Origin: an uncultured Candidatus Kuenenia sp.
Lineage (GTDB): Bacteria; Planctomycetota; Planctomycetia; Pirellulales; UBA1268
Direction: 5' to 3'
Assembly: GCA_964498325.1 (NCBI GenBank)
Contig: CAZCHF010000002.1
Location: 76,931-140,930, forward strand
Length of the DNA: 64,000 nt
The notes beneath the pieces were generated by a model. It was given only the letters and a program-made list of their open reading frames with translations. It was not told the origin of the DNA and ran no database searches. Of the stretch, positions 5,329 through 51,749 are shown one piece after another (position 1 is the stretch's first letter; each line of letters opens with the position of its first letter). The translations under genes were made by a program, and so were the position numbers.

Positions 5329-6534
5329 ATGACCATTCGTTTGGGCCACGTCATGTTGCTGGTCGGTCTATTGGTGCTCCGGGGCGCCACGACCGTTCGC
5401 GCCGACAATGAGGCCGACGTCGAACTCCCAGAGATTGAAATTTTGAGCCCGGGCGACGCCACTCCCGAAGAAGTGGAGCCCGGGGAAGAACTGTCGGACG
5501 ATACGGCCTGGTCGGACGGACTGAGTCCTGATGGAGCGGTGTTCGCGGCGCCAAAGGCTTGCCGCCACGGGTGTCGGAAGCGGTGCCAGTGCTCGTCGGT
5601 GACAACGTTCGACCTGCTTTTTCTCGAGCGCACCAACGATACCAACGGCCAACCGGTCGTCCTCTACGGTCCTCTCGCGCCCACTCCGGGCAACACTGTC
5701 ATGACCACGCGGGGCATGGTGTTCGAAACGACGCCGGGCATGCGGCTTTTCCATTCCAAACGCGACTGTCACGGTGACGGTTGGGAGATCGGCTACTGGG
5801 GCGTTTTTGGGATGGACGCCGCGAACAGGGCCGACTTCGGCGACGGCCTGGCCGTTCCCGGCGATCTTGGTCTGGCTGTCCCCGGCTGGCAGACGGCCAA
5901 TGCAATCCAGGCCGGTTACACGTCCTCCGTAAACGTCGCCGAGATGAACTTCTTCTTGGCCGACTCGTGGTCGACCACGACCTGCAACCCCAAGGATCCG
6001 TGCCACCGGGTCCATCGCACGACCACCGTTGACTGGCTCGGCGGCCTCTTCTGGGCCGGCGTCGACGAGACGGCTTTCCTGCGCGTCACGACCGATCCGA
6101 GCGTGCCGACGACCGCCTACCGCACGGCAGCCAGCTCGAACATGCTTGGTGTGCAAACGGGCGTCCGTGCCCGCCGGCAGTGGGACGTCTGGGCACTCGA
6201 AGGATTCCTGAAGGTGGGCCTCGGCGGCTCCTGGCTCCACCAGTCGACAAGCCCGATCACGTCCGGCCTCGTGCCAGGTTTTGAATACCGAATGGGACGC
6301 GAGGCCGAAACCACCAACACCGGCTTCCTCTCGAGCATGAACGTCACGGCCGTACGGTCCTTCGGCGAGCACTGGTCGCTTCGTGTCGGTTACAACCTCG
6401 CCTGGCTCAGCGGCCTGGCCCTCGCCCCGAACCAGTTCGACTTCACCGATACCGCCACGAGCGGCACGGGCATCAACGGTGCCGGCAGCTTGTTCTTGTT
6501 TGGTGCGAACTTGGGTTTGGAACGCACGTGGTAG
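5329..6534 (+). CDS. Outer-membrane beta-barrel protein (BBP7-like)
   Basis: Signal peptide (LLVGLLVLRGATTVRA), alternating beta-strand-like segments, C-terminal ...GANLGLERTW with a terminal aromatic residue. GGGGAGAG lies ahead of the ATG. Confidence 0.65.
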   Translation: MTIRLGHVMLLVGLLVLRGATTVRADNEADVELPEIEILSPGDATPEEVEPGEELSDDTAWSDGLSPDGAVFAAPKACRHGCRKRCQCSSVTTFDLLFLERTNDTNGQPVVLYGPLAPTPGNTVMTTRGMVFETTPGMRLFHSKRDCHGDGWEIGYWGVFGMDAANRADFGDGLAVPGDLGLAVPGWQTANAIQAGYTSSVNVAEMNFFLADSWSTTTCNPKDPCHRVHRTTTVDWLGGLFWAGVDETAFLRVTTDPSVPTTAYRTAASSNMLGVQTGVRARRQWDVWALEGFLKVGLGGSWLHQSTSPITSGLVPGFEYRMGREAETTNTGFLSSMNVTAVRSFGEHWSLRVGYNLAWLSGLALAPNQFDFTDTATSGTGINGAGSLFLFGANLGLERTW

Positions 6535-6569
6535 CTCCGTGCTTCATGCTCTTGCGGCATGGAACGCGT

Positions 6570-6709
6570 GCTCCGGGCGACCCGTGTCATGTCGCGGGAC
6601 GCTTGCGGTGGCCATCGTGGCCACCGCTGCGCTCGGAGAAATCTTCGCTTCGCCCTCCAGGCTTCGCTCAGCTTTCTACGCCCGCTCCATGACACGGGTC
6701 GCCCGGAGC
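6570..6709 (+). repeat. Palindrome-ended intergenic repeat element, copy 1
   Basis: Perfect 22-bp terminal inverted repeats (GCTCCGGGCGACCCGTGTCATG / CATGACACGGGTCGCCCGGAGC). Inner hairpin GGTGGCCA-tcg-TGGCCACC. Conserved core ...CTCGGAGAAATCTTCGCTTCGCCCTCCAGGCTTCGCTC... Confidence 0.9.
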
Positions 6710-6777
6710 CTAGGGTTTGGCAGAGGATGTGAACCTGTCTACCTGTCTTCTGAATGACGAGGGGACTGCTCGGGGCT

Positions 6778-6908
6778 GTGGGTGTTGCTGAGCCGGCGTG
6801 GGAGACCAGCGCAGCCCGGAGGGCGGAGTGCCAGTCTCCCCCGAGTGAGCGAAGGCCATGGATGGCCGTAGCGAACGTCCGGCGAAGCGACACCCACAGC
6901 CCCGAGCC
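6778..6908 (-). repeat. Diverged member of the same repeat family, opposite orientation
   Basis: 18-bp perfect terminal inverted repeats (GCTCGGGGCTGTGGGTGT / ACACCCACAGCCCCGAGC). Inner hairpin GGCCAT-cc-ATGGCC. The reverse complement aligns by eye with the copy-1 core (...CGCCCTCC.GG.T.CGCT...). Confidence 0.7.
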
Positions 6909-6994
6909 TTCAGCGTGACAGCGTCACAAAACAGCGAGGGCCGGGTGATTGCTCACCCGGCCCTCGGTTTGAAACGCGTCAGAAGAAATGAAGC

Positions 6995-8269
6995 TTACTT
7001 GCAGCGACGGCAGCCACGCTTCTTGCAGCAGCTCGACTCGCAGCAGTCGCAGCAATCCGACTTGCAGCAGCAGTCAGCCTTGCAGCAGGGCTCCTCGACG
7101 GCCACGCACACGCACTTGGTGACGGCCACTTCCTTCTCGACCTGGACCGGAACGCAGACGTTGTAGGACACCTTCTTCTCTTCCGAGACGCACTCGTAGG
7201 AGCAAACGGTGTACTTCTCTTCCTTCTGCGTCGGGACCATCACCGTGTAGGTGACTTCCTTGGCGACCGTCTCGGGCACGCACTTCGTGACCGTGTACTC
7301 GCGGGTGCGAGTCTCGGGCTTGCACTTGGTGACCGTGACCTTGCGGGTCTTCTGCTCCGGCACGCACTTGGTGACGGTGTACTCACGGGTCCGCTCTTCT
7401 GGCACGCACTTCGTGACACAGTAGGTGCGGGTCCGCTCCTCTTCCTTGCACTTGGTGACACAGACCTTGCGGGTCCGCTCTTCGTCCCGGCACTTCGTGA
7501 CGGTGTAGGTGCAAGGAACTTCTTCGGTGACGCACTCGTAGGTCGTGCAGGTCACTTCCTTGTCCTCACACGTCGGAACCCAGACCTTCTTGCAGCAGGT
7601 CTTCGGAGGGCATGGGCAGCCGCAGGCGTCGGTCCCACCGGGGATCTCGACCATCTGCGTCTCCCAGTGACCACCACGGACCTTGACGGTCTTCTTGGTC
7701 TCGACCGGAACGCGCTTGGTCACCTTCCGGGTCGCCTTCACCTCTTCGGTGTAGGGAACCTTCACGGTGTACTTCTGCTCCACCTCTTCGGTGTAGGGAA
7801 CCATCACCTTGTAGGTGCAGGTCTTCTCTTCCTTCACCGGCACCATGACGGTGTAGGTGCAGGTCTTCTTCTCTTGGACCGGAACCATCACCGTGTAGGT
7901 CTGCTCGACCTCTTCGGTGTAAGGAACCATGACCGTGTACTCACAGGTCTTGGTCTCCGTGACGTTCTTGTTGACCGTGCAGTTGACGGTCTTCGTCTTC
8001 GTCTCGGGGACACAGACCGTGACCATCCGGGTCTTCTCTTCGGTCTTCGGAACACGCTTCATGACCGTGACGGTCTTCTCGCGGGTTTCCGTCTTGTATT
8101 CCGTGCACATGACCTTCTTCATCTCGGTCACGAGCTCTTTTTTGTAAACCGTGCGGGTGCCACAGCAGGCACTCGCATCACCGCAGGCGCAGTCGCCGGC
8201 CCATGTGCTTGAACACATGGCAACGACGGCGACGGCCGGCATCACGCAAGCCATAAGTTTTCGAATCAC
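6995..8269 (-). CDS. Secreted cysteine-rich YTV-repeat protein
   Basis: The track ORF begins with TTG at 8281. GGAGG at 8279-8275 followed by GTG at 8269 gives VIRKLMACVMPAVAVVAMCSSTWAG, a plausible signal peptide. The body is 14-aa repeats (TYTVMVPxxEExxx; TKCVPExxTRxYTV). The tail is CCKADCCCKSDCCDCCESSCCKKRGCRRCK. The start codon is uncertain. Confidence 0.8.
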   Translation of the reverse strand: MIRKLMACVMPAVAVVAMCSSTWAGDCACGDASACCGTRTVYKKELVTEMKKVMCTEYKTETREKTVTVMKRVPKTEEKTRMVTVCVPETKTKTVNCTVNKNVTETKTCEYTVMVPYTEEVEQTYTVMVPVQEKKTCTYTVMVPVKEEKTCTYKVMVPYTEEVEQKYTVKVPYTEEVKATRKVTKRVPVETKKTVKVRGGHWETQMVEIPGGTDACGCPCPPKTCCKKVWVPTCEDKEVTCTTYECVTEEVPCTYTVTKCRDEERTRKVCVTKCKEEERTRTYCVTKCVPEERTREYTVTKCVPEQKTRKVTVTKCKPETRTREYTVTKCVPETVAKEVTYTVMVPTQKEEKYTVCSYECVSEEKKVSYNVCVPVQVEKEVAVTKCVCVAVEEPCCKADCCCKSDCCDCCESSCCKKRGCRRCK

Positions 8270-8636
8270 GCCAACCTCCAAAAGTAAAGAACGAACGGGA
8301 AGGACCGAGCAGGTTTGCCTCGGGAACTCGCCTGACGCCGGCCGGTCGAAGGGACCAGATTTCTGCGACGACCGAACGCTCGGCCGCCTGATAAGATAGA
8401 TAGGTTACGTCGACAAATCCGGCGTTCAAGGGTCGGGCCAGGAAAATCCGGATGACTTTGACGGCCTGTACCAGGGTTTACCCTGAAGGCGGGGTCGTGG
8501 GCTCCAACATTGGGCCAAAACCTGGCGATTTCCCCGTCGCAAGGGTTGCGACCCACCTCTCGCGGACGCCATACTTTAAATCAGTGGGGAGTGTGTTTTG
8601 TTCGTGAGGGACGGGCACCCGGGGGAGGATTCTGCG

Positions 8637-11835: not shown

Positions 11836-12720
11836 ATGCCGATTGCGGAATCGATCATGACATCGCTTCGAGCTGTTGGTCTTCGCCGTCCATCTTGCTT
11901 TGCCATGCTGGCCACCGTGTGGTTGTCGCCGGTGGCGGTCGCCGCAGACGGGCCGCCTCCAAGCCGATCGCATCTCGTGCCGGTGTCCGAGGCCGCCAGG
12001 ACGCCCGCACCGGCGGCAGGCCTCGGCATGACGCTCTCGCGTGCGTCTCCGGTGCTCCGTCGGCAACTCGCGCTCACGCGGGGCGCCGGTCTCGTCGTCG
12101 ACTCGGTGACGCCTGGATCCGCGGCCGCTCGCGCAGGCTTCGAGCCCCATGACGTGGTGGTGCGGCTCGACGACCAGATCCTCGTCCTTCCAGAACAACT
12201 CGACGCCCTCCTGGAGTGGGCCGAACCGGAAGACCCGCTCGAATGCACCGTGCTTCGGGGGGGCCGCTCGGTTTCGATTTCGCTCGCGGGCAAGATCGCC
12301 CGGCAAACGCCGCAGGTCCGCGGCCTCCGACCGACGGCCTCATCACTGGCGCTAGTGAAACCCCCGAAGCCGAAGAGCGTTGCCCCTGAAGCGCAGCTTC
12401 GGCGTCTCTCAGACGAGACCCTGCTTCGCGAAGATGGCGACTATCGGATTCAGCTCACTCGCGGTGACGACACGCGGCTGACGGTGAGCGACCTTACGGG
12501 GCAGATCGTTTTCGACGGGGTAATCGACACCGCCGCGGCACAGGCACGGATTCCGACCGCCGTTCGGGGGCGCGTGGTTGCCATGATGCAGTCGCTCGAA
12601 CAGCGTCCCGCAGCCAATGGCCAGCTTGCCGGTGGAGTCCAGCCCGTATCGGCATCCCAGCCCGCCGGAAGCCACGAGCGAATCGGCCAACTCGATGTCC
12701 CTGCGATCGAGCTGCGGTAG
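11836..12720 (+). CDS. PDZ-domain secreted protein
   Basis: Start trimmed to the ATG at 11836. Signal-like segment (FAMLATVWLSPVAVAA). PDZ-like segment (GLGMTL...GAGLVVDSVTPGSAAARAGFEPHDVVVRLDDQ). Confidence 0.6.
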   Translation: MPIAESIMTSLRAVGLRRPSCFAMLATVWLSPVAVAADGPPPSRSHLVPVSEAARTPAPAAGLGMTLSRASPVLRRQLALTRGAGLVVDSVTPGSAAARAGFEPHDVVVRLDDQILVLPEQLDALLEWAEPEDPLECTVLRGGRSVSISLAGKIARQTPQVRGLRPTASSLALVKPPKPKSVAPEAQLRRLSDETLLREDGDYRIQLTRGDDTRLTVSDLTGQIVFDGVIDTAAAQARIPTAVRGRVVAMMQSLEQRPAANGQLAGGVQPVSASQPAGSHERIGQLDVPAIELR

Positions 12721-12732
12721 GCGACCAACGCA

Positions 12733-12862
12733 GGGCCGCCCGGGTCATGTCGCCGGACGTTTGCGACGGGCGTCGGGCCCGTCGCTGCACTCGAAGAAAT
12801 CCTCGCTTCGCCCTCCAGGCTTCGCTCGGCTTTCTACGCCGGCTCCATGACCCGGGCGACCC
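12733..12862 (+). repeat. Palindrome-ended intergenic repeat element, copy 2
   Basis: Termini GGGCCGCCCGGGTCATG / CATGACCCGGGCGACCC. Inner hairpin GCGACGGGC-gtcgg-GCCCGTCGC. Same conserved core as copy 1. Lies between convergent genes. Confidence 0.85.
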
Positions 12863-12881
12863 TGCTCCCGGCGCGCTTGAG

Positions 12882-18752: not shown

Positions 18753-18790
18753 CACAACTTCCTCGGCAGCATCGGTCGACGAGGCTCTGG

Positions 18791-18917
18791 GTGGCCCGTG
18801 CCGGAGGCGACGGCGTAGAAAGCCGAGCGAAGCCTGGAGGGCGAAGCGAGGATTTCTCCGAGTGCAGCGACGGGCACGATGCCCGTCGCAAACGTCCGGC
18901 GCCCCGGCACGGGCCAC
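18791..18917 (-). repeat. Palindrome-ended repeat element, copy 3 (intercistronic in the opp operon)
   Basis: Termini GTGGCCCGTGCCGG / CCGGCACGGGCCAC. Inner hairpin GCGACGGGC-(5 nt)-GCCCGTCGC. Core in reverse orientation (GAGCGAAGCCTGGAGGGCGAAGCGAGGATTTCTCCGAG). Confidence 0.85.
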
Positions 18918-18972
18918 GCAGAGCCGGGACTTCGTGCTCGGCGTTGCGCAAGTGACATGCTTCCACCGCGTC

Positions 18973-44652: not shown

Positions 44653-45282
44653 ATGACCTCGACGCACCCGCATCACCCGCCCGTCGCCACGGCCGATCTC
44701 GACGCGCTGCTCTGTGATCTCGTGGCCCGTTGGCATGTCGTCGAGCCCGCCCATGCCGAGGGAGGCCTGCGTGGAAAAGTCTGTGACCTGCATCGATTCA
44801 ACTTTCTCCTCTGGCACGAGGAAGACATCGCCCGCTCGCCCGACGTCACCGACGCGAAGATCGCCCAGGTGAAGCGAGCCATCGACCGCTACAACCAGGC
44901 CCGCAACGACGCGATCGAGAAAGTCGACGACTGGCTCATCGCCGAGCTTTCTGCCCGCGGCATTGCCGCTTCCCAGGGTGCCCCGGCCGCGACCGAAACG
45001 CCGGGCGCCGCCATCGATCGCCTCTCGATCCTCGAGCTTCGCCGCTACCACATGCGGGAGCAGGTGGACCGTGCCGACGCGACGCCAGAGCATCGCGAGA
45101 AGGCCGCCGAGAAACTCGTCGTCCTCGACGCCCAGCGGGATCATCTCGTCGCCGCGATCGACCGGCTCATGTCGGAGATCTTCTCCGGCAAGCGACCGCT
45201 CCGTGTCTTCCGTCAGATGAAGATGTACAACGACCCGACCATGAATCCGTATCTGTACAAGTCGGGCGCCAAGGCCGCATGA
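44653..45282 (+). CDS. DUF4254-like protein
   Basis: 209 aa. ...CDLHRFNFLLWHEEDIAR...IDRLSILELRRYHM...VFRQMKMYNDP. Family name recalled from memory. GGAG lies 7 nt ahead of the ATG. Confidence 0.6.
   Translation: MTSTHPHHPPVATADLDALLCDLVARWHVVEPAHAEGGLRGKVCDLHRFNFLLWHEEDIARSPDVTDAKIAQVKRAIDRYNQARNDAIEKVDDWLIAELSARGIAASQGAPAATETPGAAIDRLSILELRRYHMREQVDRADATPEHREKAAEKLVVLDAQRDHLVAAIDRLMSEIFSGKRPLRVFRQMKMYNDPTMNPYLYKSGAKAA
45129..45282 (+). repeat. Left ~154-bp direct repeat (3' end of the intact DUF4254-like gene)
   Basis: Aligns by eye with 48186-48339. I count about 7 mismatches in the first ~133 nt, with perfect runs of ~50 and ~38 nt. Confidence 0.9.
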
Positions 45283-45353
45283 GGCCACTCCGTGACCGTG
45301 CATGCGTCTCCCGTCGCTGGTTCCTGAACCCGGCTTGGCTCACTGTGGCGTGC

Positions 45354-46987: not shown

Positions 46988-48277
46988 ATGGGTCTCCTGG
47001 GGCAAGCGATGGGCGACGTGAAACGAATCGGCGTGCGGATGGAGCTCGACAAGCCGTTCAAACGGCATGTGGCCTTGTTCGGCGGGATTCGCGAATACGC
47101 CGAGCGTCACCCCGATTGGCAGCTCGTGGTGGACGAGTGGGTCGACCACTCGCTGCCTGCCAGAAGGGGCATAACCGTTCCCTACGACGGCATCATTGGC
47201 CGGCTCACGCCGCTGGCCGCCGAGCGTGCCAAACGCCATGATCTGCCGGCGGTGAACATCTGGCTGTCGTCGCCGGCCAAGGGTTTGCCGGGCGTGTATT
47301 CCGACGCGACCGCCAGCGGCAAACTCGTGGCGGAACATCTCCTGAACCGCGGGTTTCGGTATCTCGCCGCGCTTCTGCAAGATGACGACATCGGCACCGA
47401 CCTCCAGGCCAAAGCCATGAAGGCGTATGCCGAGGAGTTTGGGTACGAGGGGTGGCTCGGCACGGTGTCGCTTGCCGAGTGCACGACCCATGCCGAATGG
47501 CAGCTCCTGCTCGACACAGTCAAACGGTGGATGGATTCATGGAAACTACCGCTCGGGTTACTCATCCGTGATCCTTCATGGGCCCGGGCGATCGTCGAAC
47601 TGGCGAAGCAACGTGGATGGAACGTGCCCGAACAAATCGCGATCGTGGCCACCCACAACGACGAGATCCACTGCGAGTACCCCGAGCCCGGCCTGACGGC
47701 CGTCGAATTCGCCGAGAAGCAGCAAGGCTATGACGCGGCGAAAATGCTCGATGAACTCATCGAAGCCAAGCGCAAGGGAGCCTCGCCGTTTGCCGATCCG
47801 AAGAACGTCTATGTGCCACCCGTCGGCCTTGTGGCACGGCATTCGACTGATTTTTTCGCCGTGAGTGACCCGCTGGTAGGACAGGCGCTTCGCTTCATCG
47901 CCGCCCAGCTCCACAAGCCCTTGAGCGCGCCGAAAGTGGCCCGTGCCTTGGGCGTGGCCCGCCGCACGCTCGACGCCTGGTTTCAGAAATCACTCGGCCT
48001 GACCGTGGCCGACGAGATCAACCGCCTCCGCATCGAACGCGTGAAGCGCGAACTGATGGCGAGCCAAGACTCGATTGCCGTCATCGCCAAGCGCACCGGC
48101 TTCGCGAGCCTTCGCACACTCCGCGATCAGTTTCAGCGTAGCGTCGGCATGTCGCCCACGGCGTTTCGCGAGCAAGCCGTCGCGACGCCCGGCGCGATCA
48201 TCTCGTCGCCGCGACCGACCAACTCATGTCGGAGATCTTCTCCGGCAAGCGACCGCTCCGTGTCTTCCGTCACATGA
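46988..48277 (+). CDS. XylR-like regulator (periplasmic-binding-protein-like sensor + AraC-type HTH)
   Basis: KRIGVRMELDKPFKRH... sugar-binding-like N-terminal region. C-terminal AraC HTH (...IAVIAKRTGFASLRTLRDQFQRSVGMSPTAFRE). An alternative start is at 47009. The last ~29 codons are read from the right direct repeat in a shifted frame. Confidence 0.8.
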   Translation: MGLLGQAMGDVKRIGVRMELDKPFKRHVALFGGIREYAERHPDWQLVVDEWVDHSLPARRGITVPYDGIIGRLTPLAAERAKRHDLPAVNIWLSSPAKGLPGVYSDATASGKLVAEHLLNRGFRYLAALLQDDDIGTDLQAKAMKAYAEEFGYEGWLGTVSLAECTTHAEWQLLLDTVKRWMDSWKLPLGLLIRDPSWARAIVELAKQRGWNVPEQIAIVATHNDEIHCEYPEPGLTAVEFAEKQQGYDAAKMLDELIEAKRKGASPFADPKNVYVPPVGLVARHSTDFFAVSDPLVGQALRFIAAQLHKPLSAPKVARALGVARRTLDAWFQKSLGLTVADEINRLRIERVKRELMASQDSIAVIAKRTGFASLRTLRDQFQRSVGMSPTAFREQAVATPGAIISSPRPTNSCRRSSPASDRSVSSVT

Positions 48278-48339
48278 AGATGTACAACGACCCGACCATG
48301 AATCCGTATCTCTACAAGGCCGCGTCGAAGGCTGCCTAA
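48186..48339 (+). pseudogene. Right direct repeat: orphan 3' fragment of a DUF4254-like gene
   Basis: In its own frame it encodes RDHLVAATDQLMSEIFSGKRPLRVFRHMKMYNDPTMNPYLYKAASKAA-stop. The intact gene has RDHLVAAIDRLMSEIFSGKRPLRVFRQMKMYNDPTMNPYLYKSGAKAA-stop. The frame has an upstream stop at 48139-48141 and no start codon. Confidence 0.8.
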
Positions 48340-48379
48340 GCCTGGATCGAGCGAGCGTGTCACATCGGCGCGAGCCCAC

Positions 48380-49516
48380 TCAGTCCTTCAGTTCTTTGAC
48401 GGCTGACGTTGGAACCCACTCGTCCCACTCCGTCGAGTAGCCGTCGTAGTGAACCTTGTGCATCCCGAACTGGGAAGCAAGGACCGTGCCGCGATACCAC
48501 GTCTTGTCCTTGGGCCACAGCACGTTCACGCGCGTGCCATTGGCAAACGTTGTGACGCGCGGCTTGCGGAGTCGATCTTCGCCGACCCATTCGTTCCACG
48601 TGTCGTCGTAGCCAAGGTAATGGACCTGTGACGAGCCGCCGTCAACGTCGATCACCTGGGCCGGGTACCACGAACCTTTCCACTCGACCTCGACCCGGCG
48701 TCCAAGGCCGTCTTCCGGTTCGCCGTCGGTGTCCGCAATTGCCATGTCCGCGTCAAAATCATCGGTGGCGATGAACATGGCCTTTTGGTGCTCGACGTAG
48801 GCCATCGCTTCTTCGGTGTAGGTCGCGAGCTCGCGAAGCTCTACTTCGCCGTCAGCGTCGGTGTCCACCAAGGGGCTGCCCTGAAATCCGGCGATGAGCG
48901 ACTCGGTGAACGTCCAGTTGCCGGTCGACGAGTTGTGGGAATACGAGCTCGTCAGGCACGCGCATGCTAGGTCGTCGCGATGCTTCGCTGCTTCATCATG
49001 GAGTGCGCCCGAGTGGCAGCAATCCGCCATGAAGATCACCTCGTCGCCACTGAAGCGGTCCAGGACCGTGGAGAATATCTCCTTCACCGGCCAGTGGCTC
49101 GCGTAGCTTTCGCCCGCGTCGTAGTTGGCGAAGTAGGTCTGGCCTGTCTTTCGATCACGGCTGCCGTGGCCGGCGAAATAAACGATGAGAAGATCGCCCT
49201 TGTCGGTGCGGTCGAGTTGGCGCTTGAACCGTTGACGGATCGAGGCGAGTGTCGCTTCTTCGTCGGCGAGAAACACGACGTGATCGTCGGGCACACCGGC
49301 GGCCTCGAGCACCTTGACGAGACGCCGATCCGCGCGATTCGGCATGGCGTCAGGAAACGAGGCATAGATCTCTTCGTGTTCCCACTCGAGAATGCCGACG
49401 GCAAACACCCACGTACGCTCCGGATCCCAGCCGATCTCGGCGTGGGCTGCGGCCGAGAGAAGCACGAACAGGGCGACACTCGAGAACGAAATCCTCCACG
49501 TGACCATACGAGACAT
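48380..49516 (-). CDS. Secreted caspase-fold (peptidase C14-like) protein with two C-terminal Tudor/Agenet-like domains
   Basis: Start trimmed to MSRMVTWRISFSSVALFVLLSAAAHA. His-Cys dyad context YFAGHGS and FMADCCHSG. Two ~45-aa repeats (VEVEWKGSWYPAQVIDVD...VHYLGYDDTWNEWV; VNVLWPKDKTWYRGTVLAS...VHYDGYSTEWDEWV). Confidence 0.75.
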   Translation of the reverse strand: MSRMVTWRISFSSVALFVLLSAAAHAEIGWDPERTWVFAVGILEWEHEEIYASFPDAMPNRADRRLVKVLEAAGVPDDHVVFLADEEATLASIRQRFKRQLDRTDKGDLLIVYFAGHGSRDRKTGQTYFANYDAGESYASHWPVKEIFSTVLDRFSGDEVIFMADCCHSGALHDEAAKHRDDLACACLTSSYSHNSSTGNWTFTESLIAGFQGSPLVDTDADGEVELRELATYTEEAMAYVEHQKAMFIATDDFDADMAIADTDGEPEDGLGRRVEVEWKGSWYPAQVIDVDGGSSQVHYLGYDDTWNEWVGEDRLRKPRVTTFANGTRVNVLWPKDKTWYRGTVLASQFGMHKVHYDGYSTEWDEWVPTSAVKELKD

Positions 49517-49555
49517 GCCCGTTGCCTCCGCGACCAGCACGCTGGGATCGGTGAG

Positions 49556-50653
49556 TCACTCAATACAGTTGGCGAGCGCCAACAGGGCGTACGAGGTCAC
49601 GAGGACCGGCTCACCTTCGAGCCAGCGCTCGTTGGGGTTCGTCCACGAGCCATCCGGCTTCTGCCGCGAGACGATGGCCGTCGTGAGCTCGTCTCGCCAC
49701 ACATGCTTCTTGCCGTCGGCGTCGGTAAAGGTGTCTTCACCGAGTACGGCAAGTGCCTTCGAGGCCGTGTGATAGAAGTAGTAAAGGCCTGCCTGGCCCA
49801 TGCCGGGGTTTTCGTCGAACGAATAGTTCTTGCCCAGCCATTCGATGGCGGCCTTCACCCGCGGATCTTCTTTCGTCAGCCCGGCGAAGATCATGCTCTT
49901 GAGGCCGGCATAAGTCATCGAGGCATAGCTGCGCAGTCCGCCGTTTTCGGTCGTCCCAGCCTGGCTCTCGCCTCCGGCCGCAGGCGTGTAGTAAAAGCCG
50001 CCGTCCGGGTTCTTCTCAGGAAACGGAAGCGGGTTGTGAGGCCCAGGCAGATTCTGGGTTCGCGATACGAACTCGAGCGCCTTCTGGATCGCCGGATCGT
50101 TTTCACTTTCGCCGACGGTGCGCAGGGCCTCGATCATGAACTGGGTGTTCGAAAGATCGGGCCGCGACTTCTTGCCGTAGCCGGCGCCGCCGTAGGCCGG
50201 GTCGTTCTTGTCCTTGCCCTCGTCTTCGTCCCACTGGAGTTTCTTGACGAACGCCGTCGCTCCCTTGATCTCCTTGTCGAGTGAGCCGTTTTTGTTACAG
50301 GCCGCGAGAGCGAGCATGGCGATCGACGTCTCGTAATTGGCCACCGGCGACCCGGGCGAATAGATTCCGCCGTCAGGCTGACGGAACGTCATGAGATACT
50401 CGAGCCCCTTCTTCACGACGGGGGCATCGGCCGGTGTTCCGCTTCGCACGATCGCCGTGAGCGTCAGCGCCGTGACGGCGGGGCCCAACTCATTCTTGAA
50501 GCTGCCGTTCTCTTGCTGACAGCCTTCGAGGAATTTCGTGGCCTTCGCGATGGCCTCCTGCACCTTCTCCTTGTCGGCGGCATGGCTCGTGAGGGCCATG
50601 GCCAGCATGGCGGTCGAAACAGCAACGGCGAGGGCGACGCGAAGGAGTTTCAT
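49556..50653 (-). CDS. Secreted prenyltransferase/squalene-oxidase-repeat (alpha-alpha toroid) protein
   Basis: Signal peptide. Repeated QxxDGGW/F-type motifs (RQPDGGIYS, NPDGGFYY, QKPDGSWTN). Confidence 0.7.
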   Translation of the reverse strand: MKLLRVALAVAVSTAMLAMALTSHAADKEKVQEAIAKATKFLEGCQQENGSFKNELGPAVTALTLTAIVRSGTPADAPVVKKGLEYLMTFRQPDGGIYSPGSPVANYETSIAMLALAACNKNGSLDKEIKGATAFVKKLQWDEDEGKDKNDPAYGGAGYGKKSRPDLSNTQFMIEALRTVGESENDPAIQKALEFVSRTQNLPGPHNPLPFPEKNPDGGFYYTPAAGGESQAGTTENGGLRSYASMTYAGLKSMIFAGLTKEDPRVKAAIEWLGKNYSFDENPGMGQAGLYYFYHTASKALAVLGEDTFTDADGKKHVWRDELTTAIVSRQKPDGSWTNPNERWLEGEPVLVTSYALLALANCIE

Positions 50654-50791
50654 GGTGGCAATCCAAGGTGCTGGGGAGCGGATTCGATCCCCTAAGAATA
50701 CGCAGGCTCCGGCGTCGTGTGGACGAATGACCCTGGGTGAAATTTCCCCGCGCCGGCGACCCCTTCGCCACGGAAATCACAAACGCCGCGA

Positions 50792-50931
50792 GCTCAGGGC
50801 CGCCCGTGTCATGTCGCGGGACGTTTGCGGTGGCCATCGTGGCCACCGCTGCACTCGGAGAAATCCTCGCTTCGCCCTCCAGGCTTCGCTCAGCTTTCTA
50901 CGCCCGCTCCATGACACGGGCGGCCCTGAGC
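50792..50931 (+). repeat. Palindrome-ended intergenic repeat element, copy 4
   Basis: 22-bp termini GCTCAGGGCCGCCCGTGTCATG / CATGACACGGGCGGCCCTGAGC. Inner hairpin GGTGGCCA-tcg-TGGCCACC. The core is nearly identical to copy 1. Confidence 0.9.
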
Positions 50932-50972
50932 GGGCCATGCCGTTTCACCTTCACGTACGTAGAAAGCGCTGT

Positions 50973-51563
50973 TCACGCGTCGGCGACGGGCATCGCGCGG
51001 GGGTGGGCTGGGATGCGGCGCGGGGGCGGTTCACGCCCCTCTTCGAGGCGCCACTCCTCACGCTCTTCGTCGCTGGCGTAGTACGTAAGCCACACCGAGG
51101 CATCGCCGTCGAGCGTGGCGCTACAATCCCAATGAACAAAATTGTCAGGCAGGTCGACCTTCTTGAGCACCGCCGGAAGGATGTCGCGGCGGATGAGTGA
51201 ATACAGTTCGCGATCCGAGAGGTGGTCGGTGAAGTCGAGCACGATGCGCTTGTCGTGAAGCTGCTCGATCACGTCCCAGAGCCGCTCGCGAACTTGGTCG
51301 TCATCGAGCGTGCACACCGGCTGCATCGCCAACGGCGGATCGAACCAGCGGGCCACCGGCGCCATCGGCGCGAGCTCCCAGGCGAGCATCGACTCGAGGA
51401 AGCGGTTCTCGGCCTCGGTGGGCAGGTGACGGAAGTCGATCTCGTAGACGGCCTCGTCGAGGTACGGCTCAATCGCCGTACGGAGCTCACCGTTGCGAAT
51501 GAGGCAATCGATCTCTTCCGGATCAGGGTGGCGGGCGAGAGGCATACCGGATGGCATCCACAT
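50973..51563 (-). CDS. Hypothetical protein
   Basis: Start trimmed to MWMPSGMPLARHP (GGAGGATGG upstream). Acidic, ordinary composition. No family recognised. Confidence 0.5.
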   Translation of the reverse strand: MWMPSGMPLARHPDPEEIDCLIRNGELRTAIEPYLDEAVYEIDFRHLPTEAENRFLESMLAWELAPMAPVARWFDPPLAMQPVCTLDDDQVRERLWDVIEQLHDKRIVLDFTDHLSDRELYSLIRRDILPAVLKKVDLPDNFVHWDCSATLDGDASVWLTYYASDEEREEWRLEEGREPPPRRIPAHPRAMPVADA

Positions 51564-51749
51564 GAATCGGCCGCCATCCTCCGGCACCCGCCGGGATCGA
51601 CGACGACATGCCTCCGACGATACCTCCACGATACGGCCGTTCAACGCCGTAACGCACGAATTTGCCCCGGTTTCCTGTCAAGAAGACAGCACGATCGCTA
51701 CGAGCGGACGACTCTTCGCGGACTCCCTCGTCCTACGCAGCTTGCCGCG

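Follow-up and report, generated by a model that had tools for sequence, protein, structure and literature searches.

A stretch of 64,000 nucleotides from an uncultured Candidatus Kuenenia sp. (GenBank assembly GCA_964498325.1, contig CAZCHF010000002.1, positions 76,931–140,930; hereafter, the window) contains five copies of a palindromic element of ~140 bp, which belong to an extensive family of palindromic DNA elements that is old, has a folded structure, and is present in many Planctomycetia. We have named this family R1, and use the same name for its covariance model. On balance, we favour the view that R1 works like the repetitive extragenic palindromic (REP) elements and REPINs served by RayT-type Y1 transposases, from which it is probably derived; it is most likely an elaborate variant of the REP/REPIN class rather than a new kind of RNA gene. 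Between the two candidates put forward in the original prediction, which had been made from the letters of the window, a REP-like DNA hairpin or miniature inverted-repeat transposable element (MITE) read by a trans-acting enzyme is better supported than a structured RNA, in its REP-like form, on the basis of the REP-like distribution of the copies, the lack of target-site duplications, strand-specific signals that are independent of transcription, and the homology of one of the R1 hairpins (hairpin B) to REPs flanking RayT genes.

The R1 covariance model, built from 56 members, gives exactly five matches in the window (125–147 bits; E = 9e-26 to 9e-22), and these are the five copies that had been picked out by eye. 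The limits given for copies 1 and 5 were correct; copy 2 starts at 6768, where the stem quoted for it (GCTCGGGGCTGTGGGTGT) begins, rather than at 6778, and copies 3 and 4 had likewise to be redrawn (12730–12865 and 18784–18924). The 25-nt core TCGCTTCGCCCTCCAGGCTTCGCTC is matched exactly in four of the five copies, with none expected from shuffled sequence. In the following, the top strand is the one bearing the CTTCGCCCTCC core, which is also the strand quoted in the original prediction, and the bottom strand is its complement. The five copies are:

6570–6709, + strand: copy 1 (model match 6567–6720, +; 146.5 bits, E = 9e-26), the strand given being the one that bears the CTTCGCCCTCC core; it begins 36 nt past the stop codon of a BBP7-family gene (5329–6534).
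6768–6908, − strand: copy 2 (model match 6757–6910, −; 138 bits), diverged and in the orientation opposite to copy 1, downstream of a YTV-repeat gene (6995–8281, − strand) and of the terminator hairpin of that gene.
12730–12865, + strand: copy 3 (model match 12725–12878, +; 130 bits), 10 nt past the stop codon (TAG, 12718–12720) of a PDZ-domain gene, with that of a convergent gene (863-aa product) at a distance of 17 nt.
18784–18924, − strand: copy 4 (model match 18773–18927, −; 125 bits), within an oligopeptide ABC-transporter operon identified by Pfam and translation, with the permease stop codon (~18973) on one side and the ATPase start codon (18755) on the other.
50792–50931, + strand: copy 5 (model match 50789–50942, +; 145 bits), flanked by two − strand genes (49556–50653 and 50973–51644), the core-bearing strand being antisense to both.

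Copies 1 and 2 form an inverted pair between convergent genes, as had been described, and are 58 bp apart. The genes of the window belong, by Pfam, to Planctomycete-specific families (BBP7, YTV, PSCyt/PSD, and HXXSHH) or have housekeeping functions. Pfam scans of its ~50 predicted proteins reveal no transposase, RAYT, or integrase, and tblastn with Y1 transposases also finds no transposase or RAYT, which bears out the absence of such a gene noted earlier.

A search of relatives, as the original prediction had advised, shows the family to be widespread. An exact-pattern scan for the core, with one genome taken per species, yielded more than 94 stretches, mostly from metagenome-assembled genomes (MAGs) labelled Pirellulales, Planctomycetia, or Planctomycetota; the collected loci carry L-numbers, and all family counts refer to these loci together with the window. 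The R1 model identifies at least 92 non-redundant copies, from at least ~42 species-level MAG assemblies, at a density of ~1 copy per 10–15 kb in the loci seen (5 copies per 64 kb in the window). Many contigs terminate within an R1 copy, as expected of a dispersed repeat. R1 breaks metagenome assemblies of Planctomycetes, and the R1 model, together with the hairpin-B model R2 described below, could serve for annotation. Nothing that the original prediction had named as speaking against it was found: no Rfam family matches R1 (0 matches at the gathering threshold over the whole window, and in an E-value search of 6500–7000 only chance matches to miRNA and lncRNA models, far below the cut-offs), and a literature search on REP, MITE, REPIN, and structured RNA in Planctomycetes returned no description of R1, the only relevant source being a general REP survey (Di Nocera et al. 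2013; PMC3733652). For R. baltica, the survey reports RAYTs along with short GTAG REPs, and R1 is not among them. Full-R1 contigs with a GC fraction of ~0.67–0.77 were also found in ‘Candidatus Kuenenia’ or Chitinophagaceae MAGs (L015, L016, L021, L055, L060, and L075); these are probably mis-binned Planctomycetia contigs.

The predicted R1 fold consists of a terminal stem (P1, ~22 bp), a second stem of 5 bp (P2), and two hairpins, A and B, which together form a three-way junction. For copy 1, this fold is far more stable than that of shuffled sequence (z = −10.2 for the + strand and −12.3 for the − strand). Its parts in copy 1 are:

6570–6591, + strand: 5′ arm of P1, paired over 22 bp with 6688–6709 in the minimum-free-energy fold; all P1 pairs covary family-wide.
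6688–6709, + strand: 3′ arm of P1, from the minimum-free-energy fold and covariation.
6594–6598, + strand: 5′ arm of P2 (GCGGG), pairing with 6681–6685; 92–94% paired across the family.
6600–6631, + strand: hairpin A, whose stem varies among copies with complementarity kept.
6634–6680, + strand: hairpin B, the REP-like unit, with a variable stem and a conserved apex.
6645–6669, + strand: conserved core, whose complement holds GCGAAGC heptamers at 6647–6653 and 6661–6667, separated by a 7-nt spacer (6654–6660).

The 5′ arm of P2 is followed by a near-invariant GGACG (CGTCC on the complement). The bottom strand of hairpin B has the order GTAG-stem-GAGCGAAGCCTGGAGGGCGAAGCGA-stem or, in fuller form, GTAG-stem-GAGCGCAGCC-TGGAG-GGCGAAGCGA-stem. 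On the top strand, its near-invariant apex of 23 nt is CGCTYCGCCCTCCRGGCTKCGCT. The core had been described as looking single-stranded; this holds only in part, since the flanks of the core form the covarying stem of hairpin B, and conservation in sequence is confined to the apex of ~23 nt. The compensatory differences quoted between copies are real: hairpin A of copies 1 and 5 differs from that of copies 3 and 4 by three base pairs, all of them compensated (GCGGTGGCCA/TGGCCACCGC versus GCGACGGGCA/TGCCCGTCGC). A subfamily confined to one MAG (JBGTKO01; L002 3792–3969, L020 7014–7191, L032 5144–5319, and L056 7106–7284) carries a nested hairpin of ~25 nt, GGCCGCAnGCGGCC, in the loop of hairpin A, showing that the R1 scaffold tolerates helix insertions.

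Selection on this structure is strongly supported. When the hand-drawn structure was applied to a structure-blind MAFFT alignment of 56 copies, 83% of the cells were paired, versus 70.6% after shuffling and 36–46% in controls with the structure slid along the alignment; two-sided changes were seen at 40 of the 53 pairs, versus 27.4 ± 2.0 (shuffled) and 19–26 (slid controls). None of 500 shuffles matched the observed values of pairing and covariation; the copies are phylogenetically related, so that the shuffle statistics overstate independence, an effect mitigated by the slid controls and by orthologs of a single locus. In the alignment made with the R1 model, 86% of the cells are paired and 47 of the 53 pairs covary. 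At this single locus, five syntenic orthologs of copy 1 from five genomes differ in P1 and in both hairpins (A and B) through compensated changes, and have flanks that are unalignable.

The evidence of constraint on the resident copies is unusually clear. In a sister species, the pair of copies 1 and 2 and a copy at the site of copy 3 occupy the same places on a syntenic contig (L095), which bears in addition one copy that is not in the window. Between the window and L095, copy 1 is 91.5% and copy 2 is 85% identical, whereas the intergenic spacers are 43% identical and the four-fold degenerate sites of most genes are 49–65% identical. As a yardstick of constraint we used a GC-rich hairpin followed by a T-run at 6932–6975, downstream of the YTV gene (− strand), which has the appearance of a genuine intrinsic terminator; its identity with L095 is 89%. 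At the PDZ-gene site (copy 3), the window and L095 hold different R1 subfamilies, and a third genome has a re-arranged variant with unchanged ends. Copies sampled within one genome are 80–94% identical to their nearest neighbour, with no identical dispersed copies, and subfamilies are common to several species. Based on the identities with L095, the series of orthologs, and the divergence within genomes, R1 is an old family of slow turnover, in which parked copies are under constraint. The sole case of presence versus absence (L095 20227–20380 versus ~15460 of the window) did not yield the exact ends of the element from the empty site, as the flanks are too diverged for alignment. A second, unrelated intergenic repeat with AAAGTCGCTCGCTGCGCGAGTCCTTCGGATTGTCGC, which is not in the window, occurs at L095 17490–17660 and L102 7360–7550; in one genome it is the neighbour of an R1 copy, and in another it takes the place of the R1 interior.

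These data also bear on whether R1 could be a functionless palindrome not under structural selection, the arms of which stay complementary through gene conversion or through intrastrand repair templated by the hairpin. Templated repair can indeed homogenise arms, and the mismatches in P1 are mostly transitions; however, conservation across ~40 species is highest in the loops and junctions of R1 that are unpaired, which arm-to-arm conversion cannot bring about, and orthologs at 85–91% identity lie next to spacers at 43%. We therefore consider this explanation extremely improbable.

The genomic setting of R1 is that described for REPs (PMC3733652). With the flanking coding strands assigned by a 3-periodic Markov model, which agreed with 37 of 37 professional gene calls, 22 copies were placed in convergent gaps, 29 in co-directional gaps (17 in one orientation and 12 in the other), and 2 in divergent gaps. 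Copies usually start within ~0–60 nt of a stop codon, with a median distance to the upstream stop codon of ~33 nt. A bias in orientation was considered and dropped, since the crude 51:27 excess of ‘sense’ copies vanished once the contexts were separated, leaving 17:12 in the co-directional gaps; the excess had arisen from the enrichment in convergent gaps and the depletion in divergent ones. Inverted pairs of R1 occur in the window, L027, L049, L065, L095, and L099. None of the five window copies shows a target-site duplication, there being no direct repeat common to their flanks, and no transposase lies between closely spaced copies, the intervening genes being housekeeping ones (MiaB-, HemN-, transketolase-, and FumC-like, as judged by eye). 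A role as an intrinsic (Rho-independent) terminator was rejected because T-runs are rare: of 84 copies, those followed by a run of at least four number 7 on one strand and 1 on the other. Unlike nearly all other R1 copies, the two of a marine Pirellulales MAG (L019 2256–2414 and 4283–4440) resemble intrinsic terminators, lying 2–5 nt past a stop codon and being followed by T7–T8 runs.

Classical bacterial MITEs (Correia/NEMIS, ERIC, RUP, and Nezha) are 100–200 bp in length, are bordered by target-site duplications, and have ends matching those of insertion sequences of the DDE type. R1 is similar in size, in its terminal inverted repeats, and in being dispersed between genes, and differs in having neither duplications nor matching ends and in the covariation of its internal helices. 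It is very unlikely that R1 is such a MITE, in which P1 would serve as terminal inverted repeats bound in double-stranded form by a DDE transposase encoded elsewhere, and would covary because its two ends co-evolve with the protein. The long terminal repeats, the dispersed copies, the contig breaks at copies, and the second repeat family nested in an R1 remnant would all be in keeping with this explanation. Nevertheless, no window copy has a target-site duplication, covariation is as strong in hairpins A and B as in P1, and P1 varies among the copies of one genome, which fits poorly with a single sequence-specific transposase; moreover, inspection of the loci revealed neither a transposase nor a longer element bounded by the R1 ends.

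The attC sites of integrons are likewise imperfect palindromes (60–140 nt) that are read as a folded single strand and conserved in structure beyond sequence. They form arrays of the same orientation with gene cassettes next to intI, and possess R′/R″ core sites. R1 differs from them in being scattered in both orientations among housekeeping genes and in having a long conserved apex. An assignment of R1 to attC sites was rejected, as its copies occur in both orientations with no integrase in the window; R′/R″ motifs were not searched for.

The two strands of R1 are not equivalent. In approximately half of the copies, P1 contains a TC/TC double mismatch on the top strand, corresponding on the bottom strand to a tandem G·A in the context 5′-CGAG/3′-GAGC, which forms a stable sheared motif in RNA and DNA alike. 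Hairpin A and the apex each have internal loops, which on the bottom strand are GNA/GNA purine loops. In RNA folding, these tandem G·A pairs and purine loops render the bottom strand more stable by ~9 kcal/mol in 73 of 76 copies. The bottom-strand apex reads GCGNAGC-CYGGAGG-GCGNAGC, with both heptamers present in 82 of 92 copies, and the positions that vary in the core are exactly the N positions of the heptamers. The sequence d(GCGNAGC) forms very stable DNA mini-hairpins, the RNA versions being much weaker (PMC13037366). These strand-specific features are identical whatever the direction in which the neighbouring genes are transcribed, and a fold at the level of DNA is thus a simpler explanation than one of RNA; the folded molecule would then be DNA. 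As judged from the modelled folds, the bottom strand, the complement of the one originally quoted, folds better and is the probable active strand.

An alternative is that R1 acts chiefly in cis as a structured RNA in 3′ untranslated regions and operon spacers, with selection on the RNA fold, for instance by protecting the 3′ ends of mRNA, by stalling ribosomes or causing attenuation, or as a three-way junction bound by a protein. The location of copies 0–60 nt past stop codons and of one copy inside an operon, the strong covariation and conserved loops, the identity of resident copies (85–91%) in the range of the neighbouring terminator hairpin (89%), and the runs of 7–8 T after both copies of the marine MAG are all compatible with this proposal, as is the action of E. 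coli REPs on mRNA. In contrast, with a co-directional orientation of 17:12 either strand would be transcribed, and yet the tandem G·A and the GCGNAGC apex are specific to one strand and identical in all copies regardless. Mispairs of the G·U and A·C types are balanced (113 versus 103; the helices are mutually inconsistent, and the count is uninformative on the folded strand), T-runs follow only 7 of 84 copies, Rfam has no match, and the apex motif is common to DNA hairpins that flank a transposase gene. Taken together, the RNA explanation with its proposed roles appears unlikely, although it may coexist with a REP-like function.

The connection to RayT enzymes comes from hairpin B. A tblastn search with an IS200 TnpA sequence gave one match, in a Phycisphaerales MAG (L029) that is in the data set solely through a match to the 21-nt core. 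The open reading frame encodes a Y1 transposase of 150 aa (PF01797, E = 5e-26), and the gene has on both sides REP hairpins of the form GTAG-CCACGGGT-loop-ACCCGTGG; in the hairpin that stands 68 nt away from the stop codon, the loop GGAGCGCAGCCCGGAGGGCGGAGCGGA is the R1 apex. The protein family comprises 5899 clusters at E ≤ 1e-10. Among the best 120 of the 5899, which are 73–83% identical to the query, the named organisms include Phycisphaerae, a Pyrinomonadaceae (Acidobacteria) MAG, and a ‘Planctomycetes’ MAG, and ‘REP element-mobilizing transposase RayT’ is a name often given to these proteins at JGI. Of a set of RayT loci (L029, two from genomes, and 80 from metagenomes), 35 contain a total of 70 GTAG-CCACGGGT REPs, placed in inverted pairs as is usual for RayT genes with flanking REPs (‘REPtrons’). 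The loop starts with G[AG]AGCG in 51 of the 70 and contains GCGNAGC in 31, with ~1.7 expected (~18-fold enrichment), and five REPs carry a split module of the R1 type, AGCGNAGCC...GGCGRAGCG. This enrichment of GCGNAGC in the loops of RayT-flanking REPs is not stated in the literature searched. RayT genes of a more distant subfamily (47–54% identity) are accompanied by REPs with other stems and the same apex, inside palindromic composites of 100–200 nt with multiple hairpins. When a model built from R1 hairpin B alone (R2) was searched against 409 kb of RayT loci, it gave four matches (E = 2e-5, 0.02, 0.02, and 0.7), all of them full-length and all REPs located 65–68 nt downstream of a RayT stop codon.

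Hairpin B and the GTAG-CCACGGGT REPs, which flank the 150-aa PF01797 family in Phycisphaerae and other phyla, have a common design of xTAG, stem, apex, and stem partner, with the apex G[AG]AGCG-(N)AGC(C...G)GCG(R)AGCG (short form, G[AG]AGCG...GCGNAGCG). The REPs are stand-alone, gene-adjacent units of 29–51 nt (8-bp stem and 12–37-nt loop) with a nearly fixed stem, CCACGGGT, whereas hairpin B has many different stems and is set in a larger scaffold. None of the CCACGGGT REPs was found in R1-bearing loci. At the metagenome loci with RayT, tblastn detected no Planctomycetia marker proteins, so that no locus is tied to the R1-bearing lineages. No RayT was found in viral contigs, the single viral-contig match to the core not being a full element, and a weak RayT-like tblastn match in L012 was discarded as spurious, as it lies inside a fumarase gene.

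Compared with the known systems of REPs or REPINs and RAYTs (E. coli REP/BIME (bacterial interspersed mosaic element), Pseudomonas REPINs, and the GTAG-REPs of PMC3733652), R1 is alike in consisting of extragenic, high-copy, imperfect palindromes, in occupying convergent and co-directional gaps near stop codons with few copies in divergent gaps, and in its frequent inverted pairs, the lack of target-site duplication, and variable stems that keep the fold. It also shares the hairpin-B apex of RayT-flanking REPs, and in 41% of its copies GTAG, the tetranucleotide tag of such REPs, stands 5′ of the hairpin. A REPIN consists of two inverted REPs, whereas R1 has one REP-like hairpin and a second hairpin, both enclosed by the 22-bp and 5-bp stems. 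R1 also resembles the repeats of TIRtrons, which are RAYT-like TIRYT genes with long flanking inverted repeats (PMC3733652): these repeats, related to Y1 genes, are long, partly self-complementary, moderately abundant, and often dimeric. However, the TIR motif GGGGWSAS (PMC3733652) has no match in R1 (GGGGTTGC, GGGGCTGC), and R1 was not seen flanking any gene in such a manner.

Under the REP-like reading, R1 would be non-coding DNA that acts as a folded single strand, with one REP hairpin (hairpin B) incorporated into a palindromic scaffold of greater size. The shape and the apex, rather than the stem sequence, would be recognised by an enzyme of the RayT type or by a host protein of like specificity, so that the stems would drift only through compensated changes. 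Copies would spread without target-site duplication, and would survive at the 3′ ends of genes, where they leave promoters unbroken. A RayT probably acts, or once acted, on R1, and the resident copies would owe their persistence to conversion or to a benefit at the level of the host.

Several observations weigh against this reading. First, a REP unit is 20–40 nt in length and a REPIN ~100 nt, sizes that the three-way junction of ~140 nt exceeds. Second, the tag is not universal: on the complement, GTAG stands 5′ of the hairpin-B stem in 23 of 56 copies, its place being taken elsewhere by CTAT, CTCC, GTGA, and others, and in the structure model it is partly base-paired. Third, a cognate RayT was not found alongside R1, as tblastn revealed no Y1 or RayT gene in ~0.6 Mb of R1-bearing contigs, and no full R1 was present at the RayT loci examined (80 metagenome loci, L029, and L184–L186); the link between enzyme and element consequently rests on the homology of one hairpin. 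Fourth, the difference in stability between the strands shrinks to 0.5–5 kcal/mol when DNA energy parameters are used. Finally, the copies are old and positionally conserved: their divergence within genomes, as seen in the sequences, gives no sign of current mobility, and resident orthologous copies are far more conserved than neutral DNA, which is not predicted for a purely selfish element.

The last of these points would be explained if R1 had been domesticated and were no longer mobile, being a host-selected three-way junction (single-stranded DNA, cruciform, or RNA) at the 3′ ends of genes across Planctomycetia. The mini-hairpin apex with GCGNAGC would then be the recognition determinant, common to RayT-type REPs of several phyla, and both the several-fold slower evolution of resident copies than of neutral sites and the failure to see any RayT nearby would be accounted for. 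We regard domestication as possible, if doubtful.

REP and REPIN elements have been well studied in Proteobacteria, but debate continues over the rules by which they are recognised and over their roles in the host. If R1 is indeed REP-like, it extends this class by an ancient, class-wide, and much more elaborate version in Planctomycetia, and the GCGNAGC DNA mini-hairpin at its apex, common to R1 and the REPs of a highly conserved RayT family elsewhere, represents a testable recognition motif.

Sequences related to the core were also encountered outside R1. In L005, L007, L024, L026, L053, L072, L086, and L090, from Bacteroidota, Acidobacteriota, Lachnospiraceae, Bifidobacterium, and Pseudolabrys, the 21-nt core is located at the apex of short hairpins with very different stems, e.g., GATCCTTCG-core-CAGGATGAC. 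These may be REP families of related RayT enzymes; an Rfam search of 17 loci from other phyla gave only 5S rRNA, with no match for their hairpins. A different repeat of ~100 nt in MAGs of Eremiobacterota and ‘Candidatus Cybelea’ (L004 4846–4866 and 5241–5261; L011, L048, L050, L064, and L084) contains tandem core-like modules, CGCTCCGCCCTCCGGGCTGCGCTCC and CTCCCGCCATCCTGGCTTCGTTCG, within a longer stem.

Three further features of the window were noted apart from R1. The 428-aa gene on the − strand contains 42-nt tandem repeats (7230–7507 and 7713–7998) in DNA rich in TGC/GCA runs, and Pfam assigns YTV repeats to the same protein. A stretch of ~158 nt occurs twice with 90% identity (45126–45283 and 48183–48340; repeat D4), near the annotated 3′ ends of genes for two otherwise different proteins, one with DUF4254 and the other a regulator with a periplasmic-binding domain and an AraC-type helix-turn-helix; it lies partly beyond the second open reading frame as called, and was rejected as a non-coding repeat because it represents a common coding C-terminus. 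Finally, a predicted protein encoded at 48380–49540 (−) combines a caspase domain (Peptidase_C14) with Tudor-knot, Agenet, and chromo-like domains, an architecture unusual for a bacterium.

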